Notes under the pieces: model-generated | Seen by the model: only the letters and a program-made list of their open reading frames with translations | Databases searched by the model: none | What the model was told of the DNA's origin: nothing | Shown here: positions 39,572-62,046 of the stretch, in pieces | How positions within the stretch are numbered: position 1 is the stretch's first letter | Layout of the letters: every line of letters begins with the position of its first letter | Program-made: the position numbers and the translations under genes | IMG/VR virus record: IMGVR_UViG_3300042539_001740 | From: a virus | Taxonomy: Duplodnaviria > Caudoviricetes | Length of the DNA: 64,000 nt | Direction: 5' to 3' (one strand)

Positions 39572-40324
39572 TTATTCTTGCATCATTTTGTCAAGCATAC
39601 TAATATAAATATTTTTATATCGTTTTATACAAACCCTAATTTCTTTAGTTGATAAATTAGTCATTTCTCGAAGGGAAAGAAGAATCACATTTTTATTAAA
39701 TTTATTGTTTGAGTTACCAATAAAAATTGAGTCATAGTTTTCAAACAATTCCATAAGTGCTTGACCTAACTTAAATTCATTTTCTGATAAGTTTTTTTCT
39801 TTCAAAACTTTTTCTAGTTCAATTAAAAAACTCTGAATAATATTTTGAGAATCTAATGTGTCATTATCAATTGAGTATGATAAATTTTCATCATTTTCTA
39901 AATCTGAGGAGATATCCTCGTATGATATTTTTCTATTGGTTTCCTTAGCATCTTTAATTATTTGACCCATCAAATAATTTTTACAGATTGTACCAAAATA
40001 AGAATAAGCCTTCTTTTCCTTCGAGGGCTTAAACTTGTCTATTTTAGTCATTAGAAATGAATGTGTATCTATATGTAGTTCTTCGAAATCCATATCCTTT
40101 CGATATAATTTGTACCTACGAATAATTGATGAAATCATTTTATCAAGTGGAATTCGGAGGAATTCATTATAAATCTTGTTTTTTTCCTCCGATGTCTCCG
40201 CATTAAGATAATCGACTACAGCAACTTCTTCTTGTATATCGAAATAGTTTTTTTGTTTTGGTTTTCTTCCCTTTTTTTTAGAATCTAAAATAGTATCACC
40301 TGAAATGATATTTGTTTCGGTCAT
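39572..40324 (-). CDS. Phage sigma factor, T4 gp55-like (late transcription)
   Basis: Sigma region-2-like KIDKFKPSKEKKAYSYFGTICKNYL and N-terminal KNYF, comparable to gp55 YNYV and NFDETKYKNPHAYIT. Confidence 0.7.
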   Translation of the reverse strand: MTETNIISGDTILDSKKKGRKPKQKNYFDIQEEVAVVDYLNAETSEEKNKIYNEFLRIPLDKMISSIIRRYKLYRKDMDFEELHIDTHSFLMTKIDKFKPSKEKKAYSYFGTICKNYLMGQIIKDAKETNRKISYEDISSDLENDENLSYSIDNDTLDSQNIIQSFLIELEKVLKEKNLSENEFKLGQALMELFENYDSIFIGNSNNKFNKNVILLSLREMTNLSTKEIRVCIKRYKNIYISMLDKMMQE

Positions 40325-41127
40325 TAAATTGTTTGTCCTTCATACTTTATTTTTCTATCACTAGTGAAGAAATATTCTTTTTTTGCACTCTCAATCCAAA
40401 ATTTAACTTCATCAGGTTGAAGTTGACTATCTCCATTTTTGTAGTTCCAAAATATAGAACCTGGTCTGAAATTAGTATGTTTGTAACCAATTTTGGGTAG
40501 TGACATAATTTTTAAACCATAATGTGAAGCCCTTAGTAAAAATTCATAACCAAATGTAAGTTTGATAGTTCCTTTGAATAAACCAGTACTTTCTAAAGCT
40601 GATTTTTTAATAACCATACCCGAAATTTGAAAGTTCTGATATTGTTGTAGAACTTCATTTGTCAATAAACCAATTTCACTTGAAATATTCAAAGCAAAGG
40701 TTGCCTCATTAGTAAATCCAACAAATTTTCCTTTTTCATCAGTATCAACAACGATTGGTAGGAATACGTCAACATCATTATAAACTGATGAATATTTTTC
40801 TACGTTGTCAAACCAAATTTTAGAATATTCATCATCAAATTCAAAAATAGAAATCCATTCAGAACTTGATTCTTGGATACCAAGGTTAACTTGTTCACAA
40901 AAGTTAGGTTCATAGTCCCACTTTACTTTTTTAATATTTAAATCACCAAAATCATAAGTATCAAGTACTTCTAATAATTTTGTTTCATCAGTGTGAACAA
41001 TAACTAATTCATTGATTTGAGTTTTTTGTTCTTTAAGTGATGTGATTGCTTTTACAAAGTATTCGTCAAAGTCAAAAGCCGAACCCGATTTTATTGGTAA
41101 TATTACTGATACATTAAATTTTTCCAT
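40324..41127 (-). CDS. Glycosyltransferase family 2
   Basis: VSVILPI, NLGIQES, FEFDD. Confidence 0.8.
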   Translation of the reverse strand: MEKFNVSVILPIKSGSAFDFDEYFVKAITSLKEQKTQINELVIVHTDETKLLEVLDTYDFGDLNIKKVKWDYEPNFCEQVNLGIQESSSEWISIFEFDDEYSKIWFDNVEKYSSVYNDVDVFLPIVVDTDEKGKFVGFTNEATFALNISSEIGLLTNEVLQQYQNFQISGMVIKKSALESTGLFKGTIKLTFGYEFLLRASHYGLKIMSLPKIGYKHTNFRPGSIFWNYKNGDSQLQPDEVKFWIESAKKEYFFTSDRKIKYEGQTI

Positions 41128-41128
41128 A

Positions 41129-59487: not shown

Positions 59488-59488
59488 A

Positions 59489-60148
59489 TTAATTAGTTTT
59501 ACTTACTTGTTTATCATGAATTCTATAAAATAGCAAAGGTTCTTTTATAATATGTAATTTAGCACCATTTCTGTAACTTCTAATCCAAAGATTTTTATCT
59601 TCTCTTGGTATTTCTTGAGGTATATAAGGACCGAATTCTAACCAAAACTTTTTGGTATATGCAACACAAGGGTGAGCTAATGGTGTGATATCCATATTAA
59701 ATAAAGTTTCTAAATCGTGATTTCCTAAACCAACTGGGGCACTAAAACTATAAATCCCATTTGTTTCTTTTGTAAAAACATATTCTGAGGAAACTATATC
59801 AATATCTCCATTTAAAATGTCAATTTGTTGTTGAAATCTATTTAGAGTATAAAAATCATCTAAATTTATATTAAAACAAATATCATAGTTTTCTTCTTTG
59901 AACACTAAGTCAAGAAGAAAATTCATTGCTTCGGCATGATTGTTCATCTTAACTTTGAAAAAAAAATGTTTTTTATTGATAGTAAATATTTCTTTCAAAT
60001 TTGAACTATCGTCACCATAATTCAATTCAAAAATATCAAAATTAGTATAAGTTTGGTTTAAAATTGTATCTAAACACTTTTGAATCCACTCTTTTTTGTA
60101 GATTGAAAATATATTTGAGTGATATAAAATACAACAAGTTTTCATCAT
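59489..60148 (-). CDS. Glycosyltransferase family 2
   Basis: NINLDD, LAHP, EDKNLW, LFYRIH. Confidence 0.8.
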   Translation of the reverse strand: MMKTCCILYHSNIFSIYKKEWIQKCLDTILNQTYTNFDIFELNYGDDSSNLKEIFTINKKHFFFKVKMNNHAEAMNFLLDLVFKEENYDICFNINLDDFYTLNRFQQQIDILNGDIDIVSSEYVFTKETNGIYSFSAPVGLGNHDLETLFNMDITPLAHPCVAYTKKFWLEFGPYIPQEIPREDKNLWIRSYRNGAKLHIIKEPLLFYRIHDKQVSKTN

Positions 60149-62046
60149 TTTGATAGAGGTTTATTCATAATATAATCGTATAATTTTCTTTCGTCATTTT
60201 TGATGTTTTGAATCATACTTGGTCTAATGTGTCTATAGTTAAATAATGGTAGAGGTATTCTAACTCCCTTATACCCATTATTTCCTATTCTCCACCAAAA
60301 ATCATAATCCTCCCACCCTTTCATAGATTCATCATAACCTAACACATCGTCCCAAGCTTTTTTTCTGAACAAAGAACAACTTACAATAAAAGGCCCTCTT
60401 TTTAATCTACTCAATGACCATTCAGGTCTTTTTTCCATACCTTGTATAAAACCAATATGATTTGTATCACAATATATTGGACTCAAATTCTCATTCTTCT
60501 CAGCTTCATAAATTGCAAATAACAAATAGTTTTTATCAAATGTATCATCAACATCGTGTGGTAATATATAATATCCTTGTGAGGATTTAATAGCTGTATT
60601 TCTTGCTGCAGAAAGTCCTTTATTTCTTTCGTGATGTAAAACTTTAATATCACTATCTAAATTATTTAATATTTCCAAAGTTTTTGTATCACTCGACCCA
60701 TCATTAATAACGATAATTTCTTTATTTGAGTATGTTAAATCTTTAGCCGATTTTATTGCCTCAGGTAAATATTGACCATCGTTAAAACAAGGGATAATGA
60801 TACTAACTAGAGGACCTAAATTTTTAACGTATTTTTCTGTTAAAAATTTCAAACTCTTTTGATAGTTCTCTTGTTTAAATTGTTCAGAAACTTGTTGGGT
60901 TATATTGTTTTTATATTTTTCAATTATGTTATCTATGTTATTCAAATTACGAAACCAGTTCAAGTCAAATAAAAAACTATCATTACCAATCGACTCAAAA
61001 TTTTCAATTGGTGTTGTTGGGTAACACTTTTGAATAAAATCAGTTAATTCATCATCGAAAAGTTGAATTACATCAAAATCAATTTCTTTTATTTTATACA
61101 ACTGATTTATTTGTGTTGGTTGAAGACCATTTGGTGTGTTAATTTGCCATTTACCATCACCTAATTTATAACCGAAAGGTTCATTTATGGAACTTAAATT
61201 TATTCCTTCTCTTTTAGCTAAACTTGTTATTCTATTTCCCAAATTTGAACATATGTACAAATGATGACCTTTGTTTTTAAGTGACTTCACAAATTCGAAA
61301 ATGAATTTTTCTTTATTTGATTCCCCATTAAAATTAGTGGTTGAAATTAATATTTTTAATTTCTCGTTGGGGTGTATTTTTCTATTTAAGAATACAGGTA
61401 AATTATCTTCATATTTTGATGTGAATTTAATTCTGTTTTCCTCCCATTTAGAATTAGTCATCCCAATCGACTTATGATTAATTCTAATCTCTGTTGTTAC
61501 ACCTATTTTAACACCCGACAAGTAGTTATCAAAACAAAAAGATACATCATAAAAATGAAATCCTTGAAACTCTTCATTGAATGTTTTTTTTATTCTATTT
61601 TTGTCAATAGCAAAAAACAATCCATCAACAACAACAACTTCCTCTAAATTACTCCCCAAATCTTGTGAATATGATGATAACCAAGTTTTACCATTATGTG
61701 TATGTGCTACTTTTCCATACATTTTTTTCATATCTTCCCACCATCTACCCGATGTGGACAAAAACTTTGTACCCGCAACACCAACTACTCCATAATCTAA
61801 ATTTCTATCAAAAATTTTGAGTAGTTTGTTACCCCATTGATTAGTTTCAATAGTCAAATCATCATGACAGAAAACAACTATACTATTTGAGGCTTGTGAT
61901 AAACCTCTATTATATGCCGAGGTTAGAGATTCACCATTATTAACGATTTCAATAACTTCCAACTTGTTATGTAAACCAGAAGTTTTAATTAAATGTTTTT
62001 TATGTTCTTCATTTGAAGTTCTTGTACAATATATTATAGTAATCAT
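60145..62046 (-). CDS. Multi-domain glycosyltransferase (GT2-like + GT4 N-terminal-like + GT2)
   Basis: VFCHDD, DGLF, FHFYD; C-terminal VSIIIPCFND, INDGS, HDVDD, WEDYDFW. Confidence 0.85.
   Translation of the reverse strand: MITIIYCTRTSNEEHKKHLIKTSGLHNKLEVIEIVNNGESLTSAYNRGLSQASNSIVVFCHDDLTIETNQWGNKLLKIFDRNLDYGVVGVAGTKFLSTSGRWWEDMKKMYGKVAHTHNGKTWLSSYSQDLGSNLEEVVVVDGLFFAIDKNRIKKTFNEEFQGFHFYDVSFCFDNYLSGVKIGVTTEIRINHKSIGMTNSKWEENRIKFTSKYEDNLPVFLNRKIHPNEKLKILISTTNFNGESNKEKFIFEFVKSLKNKGHHLYICSNLGNRITSLAKREGINLSSINEPFGYKLGDGKWQINTPNGLQPTQINQLYKIKEIDFDVIQLFDDELTDFIQKCYPTTPIENFESIGNDSFLFDLNWFRNLNNIDNIIEKYKNNITQQVSEQFKQENYQKSLKFLTEKYVKNLGPLVSIIIPCFNDGQYLPEAIKSAKDLTYSNKEIIVINDGSSDTKTLEILNNLDSDIKVLHHERNKGLSAARNTAIKSSQGYYILPHDVDDTFDKNYLLFAIYEAEKNENLSPIYCDTNHIGFIQGMEKRPEWSLSRLKRGPFIVSCSLFRKKAWDDVLGYDESMKGWEDYDFWWRIGNNGYKGVRIPLPLFNYRHIRPSMIQNIKNDERKLYDYIMNKPLSK

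Follow-up and report, generated by a model that had tools for sequence, protein, structure and literature searches.

A glycan-biosynthesis locus with conserved flanks and an exchanged centre in a T4-like phage

Results

The DNA analysed here, hereafter the window, is a stretch of 64,000 nucleotides from the virus record IMGVR_UViG_3300042539_001740 (Duplodnaviria; Caudoviricetes). It corresponds to the reverse strand of bases 121525-185524 of one linear IMG/VR viral contig of 194,498 bp, whose completeness was placed at 66% by CheckV. Between positions 40324 and 62046 of the window lies a locus of 22 tightly packed, co-oriented minus-strand genes, in which 14 glycosyltransferase (GT)-type domains are distributed over 13 proteins and are accompanied by enzymes that tailor nucleotide sugars (Table 1). 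The proteins were annotated by sequence searches against Pfam, NCBIfam, PHROG and the PDB, supplemented for some of them by Atlas neighbours and an AlphaFold model. A preliminary description, prepared from the letters alone, had counted about 12 GT-type genes or domains plus sugar enzymes in this interval, and every element that it listed was found where it had been placed, on the minus strand. Its description of the whole span as a glycan island agrees with the gene list, with the qualification that a PhoH-like ATPase, a HAD-fold protein and a NadE domain also lie inside it.

Without exception, the long open reading frames (ORFs) between positions 63930 and 37270 run on the minus strand. Consecutive genes are never more than 38 nt apart and stop codons often overlap the following start, as happens where the stop of the last GT2 gene overlaps the start of the sigma-like gene at 40324. 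In the order of transcription, the genes encode the dUTPase, a double-GT2 protein, a weak GT2, a GT11, an E1/RfbH dehydrase, a fused RmlD-like/GT2 protein, a DUF5672 and a DUF3431 protein; then a second GT11, a GT17, a fusion protein of 854 aa, a GT47-like protein, a GT47-like/NadE protein, a 6-dehydrogenase and an ORF of 170 aa; and, at the end, a hexapeptide acetyltransferase, a short DegT-like protein, a third GT11, PhoH, the HAD-fold protein, an 89-aa protein, a GT-B, a GT2 and the sigma-like protein.

To place this organization in the context of its lineage, the dut-to-sigma intervals of seven relatives were compared with that of this phage, a cassette homologue being defined by E <1e-10 over at least half of the length. 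The dUTPase and sigma-like genes are 8-16 kb apart in the relatives, versus 21.7 kb here. Seven flank genes, namely those for PhoH, the HAD-like protein, the 89-aa protein, the GT-B, the GT2, the sigma-like protein and the 124-aa protein that comes next, are present in the same order in all seven relatives with 54-89% identity, and a partial homologue of the double-GT2 protein adjoins dut in every one of them (41-54% identity). The stretch between these flanks has almost no similarity to that of this phage or among the relatives, only 9% of the cassette ORFs, on average, having a homologue in another relative's cassette. The 68 variable ORFs of the relatives are still glycan genes, with 13 GT2, seven Glyco_tranf_2_5 and four DegT members, the others including GDP-mannose dehydratase, epimerases, methyltransferases, hexapeptide transferases, GT4, WbqC, GT11, GT31-type, GT92 and GH130. 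The locus is therefore composite, its flanks being conserved and its middle (43843-60148) hypervariable and subject to horizontal exchange, and its architecture resembles that of a bacterial serotype locus. The 854-aa enzyme of the middle was found in none of ten relatives taken from the largest records, and is present in two smaller contigs of the lineage (L006 and L013).

Table 1. Features of the glycan locus and of its boundaries, in the order of transcription (positions in the window)
Feature	Position	Strand	Basis and remarks
Intein-split dUTPase and intervening ORF; boundary of the locus	62043-63930	-	Pfam; uninterrupted dut of ~200 aa in seven relatives
Double-GT2 protein, 633 aa (PF13712, PF00535); distal, semi-conserved flank beside the dUTPase	60145-62046	-	Pfam
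Variable cassette, 16 ORFs	43843-60148	-	Replaced by other glycan genes in seven lineage relatives
GT2-like protein, weak	59489-60148	-	Pfam E 3e-4, below cut-off; homologue in LR756502.1, 41% identity
GT11-family glycosyltransferase (fucosyltransferase-type)	58711-59487	-	Pfam E 1e-23
E1/RfbH-type, pyridoxamine phosphate-dependent NDP-4-keto-6-deoxyhexose 3-dehydrase (3-deoxygenation step)	57393-58691	-	NF011936, 3bcx
RmlD-like reductase half fused to a GT2 domain	56035-57405	-	Pfam/NCBIfam; separate genes in other carriers
DUF5672 protein, putative GT	55383-56042	-	Pfam; GT role assumed
DUF3431 protein, putative GT	54709-55380	-	Pfam E 3e-13; GT role assumed
GT11-family glycosyltransferase	53741-54670	-	Pfam
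GT17-family glycosyltransferase	52845-53741	-	Pfam E 9e-23
Fusion of 854 aa: short-chain dehydrogenase/reductase (SDR), cupin/RmlC-like domain and sugar 3-C-methyltransferase	50269-52833	-	Pfam, NCBIfam, 4rv9
GT47/RXYLT1-like GT-B protein, virus-dominated family	49334-50272	-	Pfam, Atlas neighbours
GT47-like domain (residues 1-330) and NH3-dependent NAD synthetase-like domain (331-578)	47620-49356	-	Pfam, NCBIfam, PDB
Nucleotide-sugar 6-dehydrogenase, UDP-glucose dehydrogenase (UGDH) type	46379-47620	-	TIGR03026, 201 bits (cut-off 190)
ORF of 170 aa	45852-46364	-	Without Pfam, PHROG, NCBIfam or PDB match
Hexapeptide-repeat sugar acetyltransferase, NeuD/PglB/VioB-like	45328-45933	-	Pfam, NCBIfam
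Short DegT-like protein, 241 aa, candidate sugar aminotransferase	44610-45335	-	Motif of the pyridoxal phosphate (PLP) lysine kept
GT11-family glycosyltransferase	43843-44607	-	Pfam
PhoH-like ATPase, first gene of the proximal flank, non-glycan	43102-43827	-	Pfam E 3e-64; 62-89% identity in seven relatives
HAD-fold protein of 215 aa and 89-aa protein, conserved flank	42189-43105	-	5'(3')-deoxyribonucleotidase-like HAD
GT-B (GT1/GT4-like) glycosyltransferase, lineage-conserved	41129-42187	-	Pfam weak, E 0.0013; 54-68% identity in relatives
GT2 glycosyltransferase, lineage-conserved	40324-41127	-	Pfam
Sigma-factor-like protein; boundary of the locus	39572-40324	-	Sigma70_r2 E 0.024; 63-75% identity in nine relatives

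The authenticity of the assembly was also considered. The GC content is 0.25-0.34 throughout and 0.25-0.31 in the locus, with no shift at the latter. Of the words sampled from positions 44000-53999, 98-100% are present in each of 21 lake-water runs, although any of them may be the sample from which the contig came, so that not all are independent. In three of the four runs examined, a single contig of 18.7-20.7 kb covers the locus from 43484, 43483 or 43792 to 62000 with zero differences and even depth, and two of these three extend 2-2.5 kb past 62000. The phage attains a depth of 16-32x in these lake samples. The lake contigs break inside the PhoH gene, at about 43300-43500, where they are linked by overlaps of only ~30 nt. 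It could be argued that bacterial DNA was joined to a phage contig by misassembly or host contamination, as the gene families resemble those of bacterial polysaccharide loci and several homologous contigs are filed in cellular metagenome-assembled genomes (MAGs). Against this speak the uniform GC, the phage genes flanking and within the span, the same architecture in seven relatives, and the fact that one of the "cellular" contigs (L154, see below) is a mis-binned phage. As single contigs assembled from the lake runs extend over the cassette, we regard the chance of a chimera as negligible. The island belongs to the phage genome and is a locus for building glycans. Around positions 42001-44100, the depth of the lake-run contigs was higher on the conserved flank than on the cassette in all four runs (e.g., 36.8-39.2 versus 32.1). 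This excess, together with the breaks and loose ends inside PhoH, fits co-occurring strains with a common flank and other cassettes, and gives a weak hint in that direction.

The phage has a recognizable T4-like myophage backbone, with a terminase, a portal (phrog_213) and a gp23-type capsid protein (phrog_138, E 2e-67), and by tblastn the capsid matches thousands of T4-like phages. The nearest named ones are Flavobacterium phage vB_FspM_immuto and Microcystis phage Mel-JY01, with 41-43% capsid identity. A search of IMG/VR with the full-length capsid, insertion included, gave more than 595 matches of 76-83% identity. Among the relatives are G030 (321,403 bp with direct terminal repeats, 100% complete), G031 (296 kb, 100%) and G032 (273 kb, 93%); G030 and the contig have 131 of 241 ORFs in common, with a mean identity of 58.7%. 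The lineage is one of freshwater T4-like jumbo myophages of ~270-320 kb, whose hosts are probably Flavobacteriia-type Bacteroidota. Matches to SprB repeats and Por_Secre_tail in a phage protein, and a DnaK in G030, fit a host from this phylum and are also in line with the published "moraphages" (see below). The phage protein (L038:13235-14413; genome 32234-33412) combines SprB repeats with a weak match to the C-terminal sorting domain of type IX secretion, both hallmarks of Bacteroidota, and the DnaK is full-length (C1:256493-258274, E 5e-259). The thymidylate synthase and the DnaK of G030 are not in the 194-kb contig; they may belong to the third of the genome that it lacks, or be variable genes. 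When the whole island was compared by megablast with 50,697 phage records, no match was obtained, and a scan of viral contigs with the 633-aa double GT2 confirmed no relative.

Among the sugar-tailoring enzymes, the protein at 57393-58691 had been taken for an aminotransferase, an annotation that we correct. It scores 366 bits against NF011936 (cut-off 423) and E 6e-80 against 3bcx, and the aligned motif reads His-His where aminotransferases have Lys; with His in place of the PLP lysine, it is an E1/RfbH-type 3-dehydrase. The 854-aa fusion matches 4rv9, a D-mycarose 3-C-methyltransferase, with E 1e-73. Its SDR part is of the 4-ketoreductase/epimerase type, and its middle domain was called a cupin from the source names of homologues. 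As judged by these similarities, the fusion would make an NDP-3-C-methyl-6-deoxyhexose (NDP, nucleoside diphosphate) and the 6-dehydrogenase a uronic acid.

The preliminary description spoke of a phage-autonomous pathway, which is too strong. No match to PF00483 (NTP_transferase) was found in the 194-kb contig, and its sole SDRs are those of the island itself, with weak dehydratase scores and no clear 4,6-dehydratase among them; one relative's cassette does contain a GDP-mannose 4,6-dehydratase. With neither a nucleotidyltransferase nor a clear 4,6-dehydratase, the pathway must start from nucleotide sugars of the host.

UGDH and NadE genes are adjacent in four contexts, including the unrelated phage G020, and a GT47-NadE fusion was also found at L046:23505-25251. 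This pairing hints at a coupled role, either in NAD supply or in amidation of a carboxylate. That the NadE-like domain amidates the uronic acid was considered and set aside as speculation, the domain scoring as a regular NAD synthetase. The same applies to a route to a 3-acetamido sugar of the FdtA/C/B type through the 170-aa ORF, the acetyltransferase and the short DegT-like protein, since the 170-aa ORF has no detectable cupin match. Short DegT-like forms also occur in relatives.

The remaining annotations deserve a brief comment. The AlphaFold model of the lineage-conserved GT-B protein (predicted local distance difference test, pLDDT, of 82) has a GT-B fold, with 8xsg as its best match (template modelling score, TM, 0.70); AmGGT, BshA, MshA and PglA are among its fold matches and GtfA/SdgB score lower, and these matches do not reveal the type of acceptor. 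The two GT47-like domains are paralogues with 41% identity, an assignment backed by Atlas neighbours. The 170-aa and 89-aa ORFs had no match in PHROG or Pfam, and for the former no homologue was found in related loci. The sigma identity claimed for the gene beside the island was borne out weakly, by the Sigma70_r2 match and by Atlas neighbours that bear the name sigma factor (score 0.99). The six genes that follow it, where the preliminary description placed virion genes, matched nothing in PHROG and Pfam, and the recognizable head genes are on the opposite strand, at 19373-29251. A sigma-70 promoter scan of the locus did not rise above shuffled sequences, and a single weak terminator-like site was seen on the coding strand; for a Bacteroidota-type host, such a scan is uninformative.

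The HAD-fold protein (42458-43105) resembles 5'(3')-deoxyribonucleotidases (TM 0.6). In all of the eight sequences compared, its nucleophile motif is (D/E)-x-N and not D-x-D, so it may be inactive or repurposed. At the other boundary, each of the two ORFs encoding a dUTPase half also carries half of a Hint/intein domain (PF07591/PF01079 and PF14890), and between them lies an ORF of 297 aa with a weak DUF1064 match. Elsewhere in the window, at 11672-13747 on the minus strand, a homologue of FtsH/AAA-type ATP-dependent proteases (691 aa; phrog_4871, E 2e-242) is encoded on the strand opposite to its neighbours.

The cassette is not confined to this lineage. The 854-aa fusion has 29 relatives in viral contigs, with 51-63% identity, and thousands of metagenomic homologues, and was found in no cultured phage. 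About ten contigs hold much of the cassette in shuffled order. The closest arrangement is that of LR756502.1, an uncultured phage of 642 kb, which repeats these 15 gene types in almost unchanged order with 37-76% identity, the second GT47-like protein and NadE being encoded there by separate adjacent genes. Its island genes are on average 57.8% identical to those described here, versus 37.2% for 17 other matching ORFs, and no capsid similarity between the two phages was detectable. G020, a complete genome of 134.6 kb with a GC content of 0.38, has only eight ORFs in common with this phage, seven of them in one glycan block (88.6-101.8 kb); this block includes a core of genes for dehydrogenase-like, NadE, DUF5672 and GT47-like proteins and for the C-methyl-sugar enzyme. 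Even in unrelated phages, the gene for the C-methyl-sugar synthase is accompanied by the DUF5672 gene. Because LR756502.1 carries the cassette and G020 its core, while these phages are otherwise dissimilar to this one, the cassette is traded between unrelated phages.

Some homologous contigs are filed as cellular. L154 (PLXT01000052.1), filed as a Methanobacterium MAG, contains homologues of the sigma-like, GT2, GT-B, HAD-like, PhoH and most cassette genes, and since it carries the flank genes of this phage it is a mis-binned phage relative. In L151, L156 and L158, from Patescibacteria/Peribacteria MAGs, no polytopic protein occurs, and these three may likewise come from phages.

Hydropathy analysis (Kyte-Doolittle, 19-residue window) revealed no membrane segment in any protein of the island, the maximum being at or below 1.48, and the GT60, GT25, HtrL-like and PT-repeat (Thr/Pro-repeat) proteins of a separate cluster (see below) are likewise soluble. 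In eukaryotes, relatives of the GT11, GT17, GT47-like and GT60 proteins are held in the membrane by a signal anchor, with type II topology. In the 194-kb contig, searches for Polysacc_synt (Wzx, PF01943), Wzy_C (PF04932), Bac_transf (PF02397), NTP_transferase and Thymidylat_synt were all empty, the controls for these five being positive in 10-14 of 14 reference genomes (10-13 for the flippase and polymerase searches), and hydrophobic segments number three at most in any ORF. As the contig is not complete, relatives were searched for the machinery as well. The complete G030 has no ORF of at least 120 aa with more than three hydrophobic segments; no PF01943 or PF02397 was found in G030-G033, and no PF01943, PF02397 or PF00953 in LR756502.1, G020 and G010.

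The power of the hydropathy scan was checked on 26 loci that hold a homologue of the 854-aa enzyme in a collection of cellular genomes (Pelagibacterales, Actinomarina, SAR86, a Pseudothioglobus chromosome and others), some of which are probably mis-binned phage contigs. In 14 of them, one to four proteins with 6-14 hydrophobic segments were detected within 10 kb, showing that the scan is able to find such proteins, and two of ten polytopic proteins tested were Wzy_C, both in Pelagibacterales loci. The absence of a flippase, polymerase, exporter and initiator, first proposed for the island, thus holds for the contig, for complete or near-complete relatives and for other carriers of the cassette. 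The conclusion drawn from it, that a cytoplasmic acceptor is favoured, stays tentative: in bacterial O-antigen pathways the GTs of the cytoplasmic face are also soluble, so that missing membrane segments alone do not discriminate between acceptors.

With respect to candidate acceptors, the Thr-rich tracts pointed out in the preliminary description are real (10988-11659 and 30545-30955, the latter in a protein of 136 aa), and larger proteins with Thr/Pro repeats are encoded elsewhere in the genome. The proposal that these tracts receive the glycan is weaker than it seemed, as the cassette is also found in phages without mucin-like Thr/Pro (PT) repeats. The capsid protein has a Gly/Ser/Thr-rich insertion of ~280 aa that is not in the named relatives. 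Fibre-like or Thr-rich genes were not found inside the locus.

A gene of the GT60 family (PF11397, E 1e-70) was located about 23 kb away from the island, with GT25, HtrL-like and PT-repeat genes as its neighbours. All three lineage genomes with a completeness of 93% or more have GT60, as do seven of ten relatives; that of G030 is 67% identical and is located inside a cluster in which at least 14 proteins, 400-2300 aa long, have PT repeats. ORFs at L038:4164-7202, considered as a possible SERGT/HPAT-like GT, gave no Pfam match. These arrangements indicate that the lineage very probably O-glycosylates mucin-like proteins. The 22-kb locus may extend this mucin-type glycan, although no genomic coupling to GT60 is seen. 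Three tandem Gly_rich_2 paralogues of ~300 aa (L037:9393-12109) stand between the GT60 cluster and the PT-repeat genes and are not in G030, and a Thr-rich protein of 731 aa (L038:7229-9424) ends in a phosphatidylethanolamine-binding (PBP) domain.

DNA had also been suggested as an acceptor. No gene of the ThyA family was found in the 194-kb contig, nor in G020 or G010; G030-G032 and LR756502.1 have one, far from the locus. The ThyA of G030 (L146:231-1334) has 367 aa with an insertion of ~40 aa, passes the NCBIfam cut-off of the thymidylate-synthase equivalog and keeps the dUMP-type Asn. With no ThyA in the contig and a thymidylate-synthase equivalog in the relatives, a hydroxymethyl-pyrimidine route is without support, and a dUMP hydroxymethylase is, as far as sequence alone can tell, unlikely.

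Discussion

The reading that we prefer, although with somewhat less than even confidence, is that the locus builds a strain-variable glycan in the cytoplasm on proteins of the virion. Our confidence in a virion acceptor comes in part from precedent: to our knowledge, the systems by which phages have been demonstrated to alter the O-antigen include membrane proteins, whereas soluble sets of viral GTs with a known target act on virions or DNA. All-soluble sets acting on virions are described for giant viruses (PMC10117803, PMC8456856), and glycosylation of the virion for mycobacteriophages (Freeman 2023, as cited in PMC12619734).

From the genes we infer the sugars, the acceptor and the purpose as follows. 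Soluble enzymes would take nucleotide sugars of the host and tailor them, yielding a uronic acid through the 6-dehydrogenase, possibly followed by the NadE-like domain; a 3,6-dideoxy sugar through the E1-type dehydrase; a 3-C-methyl-6-deoxyhexose through the SDR-cupin-methyltransferase; and an acetamido sugar through the short DegT-like protein and the hexapeptide transferase. About a dozen soluble GTs would then assemble the glycan in the cytoplasm, without a lipid carrier and directly on proteins that enter the virion. In this lineage the likeliest acceptors would be Thr/Pro-rich fibre or decoration proteins, maybe primed by GT60 acting as a polypeptide GlcNAc-transferase, with the Ser/Thr-rich capsid insertion as an alternative candidate. 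Exchange of the cassette would give different glycan coats to co-occurring phage strains. The fuller version of this proposal, in which glyco-serotype cassettes traded among phages, and also with planktonic bacteria, build strain-specific virion glycans with C-methyl and 3,6-dideoxy sugars, here placed on mucin-like fibres primed by a protist-type GT60, is in our opinion possible but less likely than not.

Several observations weigh against a virion acceptor. GT60 was found in none of the 29 contigs with the C-methyl-sugar cassette and not in LR756502.1, the control with the phage's own genome being positive (2.7e-59), and neither G020 nor LR756502.1 has PT repeats or GT60; the cassette occurs in the latter and a core of it in the former, so that this type of acceptor is not needed. 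Homologues of the C-methyl-sugar enzyme are also found in bacterial surface-glycan islands (Pelagibacterales, Actinomarina and others). The contig is only about two-thirds complete, and LR756502.1 encodes, ~270 kb from its island, one strongly polytopic protein, its sole one (995 aa with 11 hydrophobic segments; 175557-178544). The host could supply the initiator, flippase and ligase. The locus is outside the virion module and packed with PhoH and the sigma-like gene, which may mean early or middle expression and fits either a virion or a host-surface product. The latter, namely that the enzymes act on undecaprenyl-phosphate-linked intermediates of the host, which then flips and ligates the altered glycan, so that a changed O-antigen, capsule or set of O-glycoproteins blocks superinfection or the re-adsorption of progeny to debris, is a serious alternative that we nevertheless consider unlikely. 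GT-rich hypervariable islands in pelagimyophages and cyanomyophages have been interpreted in this way (PMC7029224, PMC12801897), and host-surface remodelling would account for the E1 dehydrase, UGDH, 3-C-methyltransferase and GT2/GT4/GT11 enzymes typical of O-antigen loci, for the Wzy_C and other polytopic proteins that adjoin cellular homologues of the trifunctional enzyme, for cassettes in phages without GT60 or PT repeats, and for a position beside PhoH and the sigma-like gene and not beside structural genes. What it does not explain is that neither the contig nor the complete relatives contain an initiator, flippase, polymerase, ligase or polytopic protein, when the phage O-antigen modifiers that we know of bring their own membrane components, and that a polypeptide-type GT60 is conserved in the lineage, in the company of mucin-like proteins of virion type. 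Moreover, because the cassette differs among co-occurring relatives, the Wzx, Wzy and ligase of the host would need to accept many unrelated foreign glycans.

Other destinations of the sugars seem still less probable. A free oligosaccharide, a glycolipid, a glycosylated small molecule or glycosylated cytoplasmic proteins of the host would suit a cassette that moves as a self-contained unit between unrelated phages, and C-methyl and dideoxy sugars are classic decorations of natural products, as reflected in the matches to mycarose and TcaB9 enzymes. No genes for the synthesis of an aglycone (polyketide synthase, non-ribosomal peptide synthetase or terpene) were seen in the island, however, while the number and diversity of the GTs point to a long heteroglycan and the serotype-like variability suggests a recognized surface, so we find a product of this kind improbable. 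Hypermodification of DNA, in which the GTs put sugars on modified phage bases to evade restriction, is very unlikely. Soluble enzymes and the neighbourhood of nucleotide-metabolism genes (dUTPase, deoxyribonucleotidase-like HAD and PhoH) would be compatible with it, and multi-sugar DNA glycans made by virus GTs are reported (Pyle 2024, as cited in PMC12619734); but the distribution and type of ThyA described above argue against it, and hypervariability among close relatives is unexpected for a modification coupled to replication. In addition, a dozen GTs with rare deoxy and branched sugars far exceed the DNA glycans generally known to us.

For about 20 years, the GT-rich islands that large aquatic phages carry have been listed as putative "lipopolysaccharide genes". 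The question of their role is sharpened here by the lack of membrane machinery in complete genomes, the fixed flanks with a traded middle, and the conserved starter enzyme of a polypeptide type. If the virion reading is true, phage particles would wear a variable glycocalyx under diversifying selection, like bacterial O-antigens and the fibril glycans of giant viruses. A glycan on the particle would also make natural phage surfaces chemically far more diverse than capsid sequences suggest, with consequences for adsorption, particle stability, grazing, aggregation and the way in which host-range determinants are read. The C-methyl-sugar synthase and GT47-like families are abundant in viral metagenomes, and heterologous expression is possible even though the phage is uncultured.

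Comparison with known systems

GT-rich hypervariable islands in aquatic T4-like phages and clade-specific glycosylation clusters in giant viruses have already been published. New in this work are the position and flanks of the locus, its quantified variability, the sharing of the cassette across lineages and the absence of membrane machinery from complete genomes.

The locus is like bacterial O-antigen and capsule loci in its conserved flanks, variable centre, cassette exchange and enzyme families, and unlike the Wzx/Wzy- or ABC-dependent ones in that an initiating phosphoglycosyl transferase, flippase, polymerase, ligase and transporter were not found. Closer to it are the GT islands of aquatic T4-like phages, among them the one called the "host recognition cluster" in pelagimyophages and cyanomyophages (PMC7029224), as well as the clusters of P-SSM2, S-SCSM1 and S-SCSM2R, with up to 13 GTs (PMC12801897). 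Common to all are a gp23-type capsid and a non-syntenic island between conserved modules, in which GTs are combined with deoxy-sugar and UGDH-type enzymes. The host recognition cluster, however, is in the structural region, from VrlC to gp14, and includes tail-fibre genes, whereas this locus lies between dut and the sigma-like gene and has none. It also differs from these islands in its probable Bacteroidota host and in flanks that include conserved GTs, and while they are read as changing the O-chain of the host, the complete genomes studied here are without membrane machinery.

The "moraphages", freshwater jumbo phages of Bacteroidota with genomes of 200-307 kb, four core GT orthogroups and a sigma-factor orthogroup (PMC12619734), correspond by description to this lineage in habitat, genome size, predicted host phylum, the sigma-like gene and the DnaK of one complete relative. 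Their four core GTs are paralleled by four lineage-conserved GTs here (GT4-like, GT2, double GT2 and GT60). The moraphage paper lists GTs and describes no variable glycan locus (PMC12619734).

Virion glycosylation in phages offers a simpler parallel. In mycobacteriophages it reportedly depends on a few GT and methyltransferase genes beside the structural genes, with no synthesis of rare sugars, unlike the 22 genes found here away from the structural operon. In Che8, Corndog and Myrna, soluble GTs glycosylate capsid and tail proteins in the cytoplasm, according to the accounts of Freeman 2023 given in PMC12619734 and PMC12801897.

The giant viruses provide the remaining comparison, with clade-specific clusters of 6-33 genes for the fibril glycans of Megavirinae (PMC10117803, PMC8456856) and with the capsid glycans of chloroviruses (PMC9614988, PMC4691112). 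These viruses infect eukaryotes and their virion glycans are chemically demonstrated, whereas this phage is known from its genes alone; it further differs from them in that no nucleotidyltransferases of its own were found, in its variation at the level of strains and in the exchange of cassettes across phage lineages. Glycan assembly in giant viruses takes place in the cytoplasm or viral factory and needs no secretory machinery from the host; the soluble GTs of this locus, judged from genes, would correspond to this. Both have clusters in which tailoring enzymes stand beside soluble GTs, both have genes for rare bacterial-type sugars, and in both the gene content varies between relatives.

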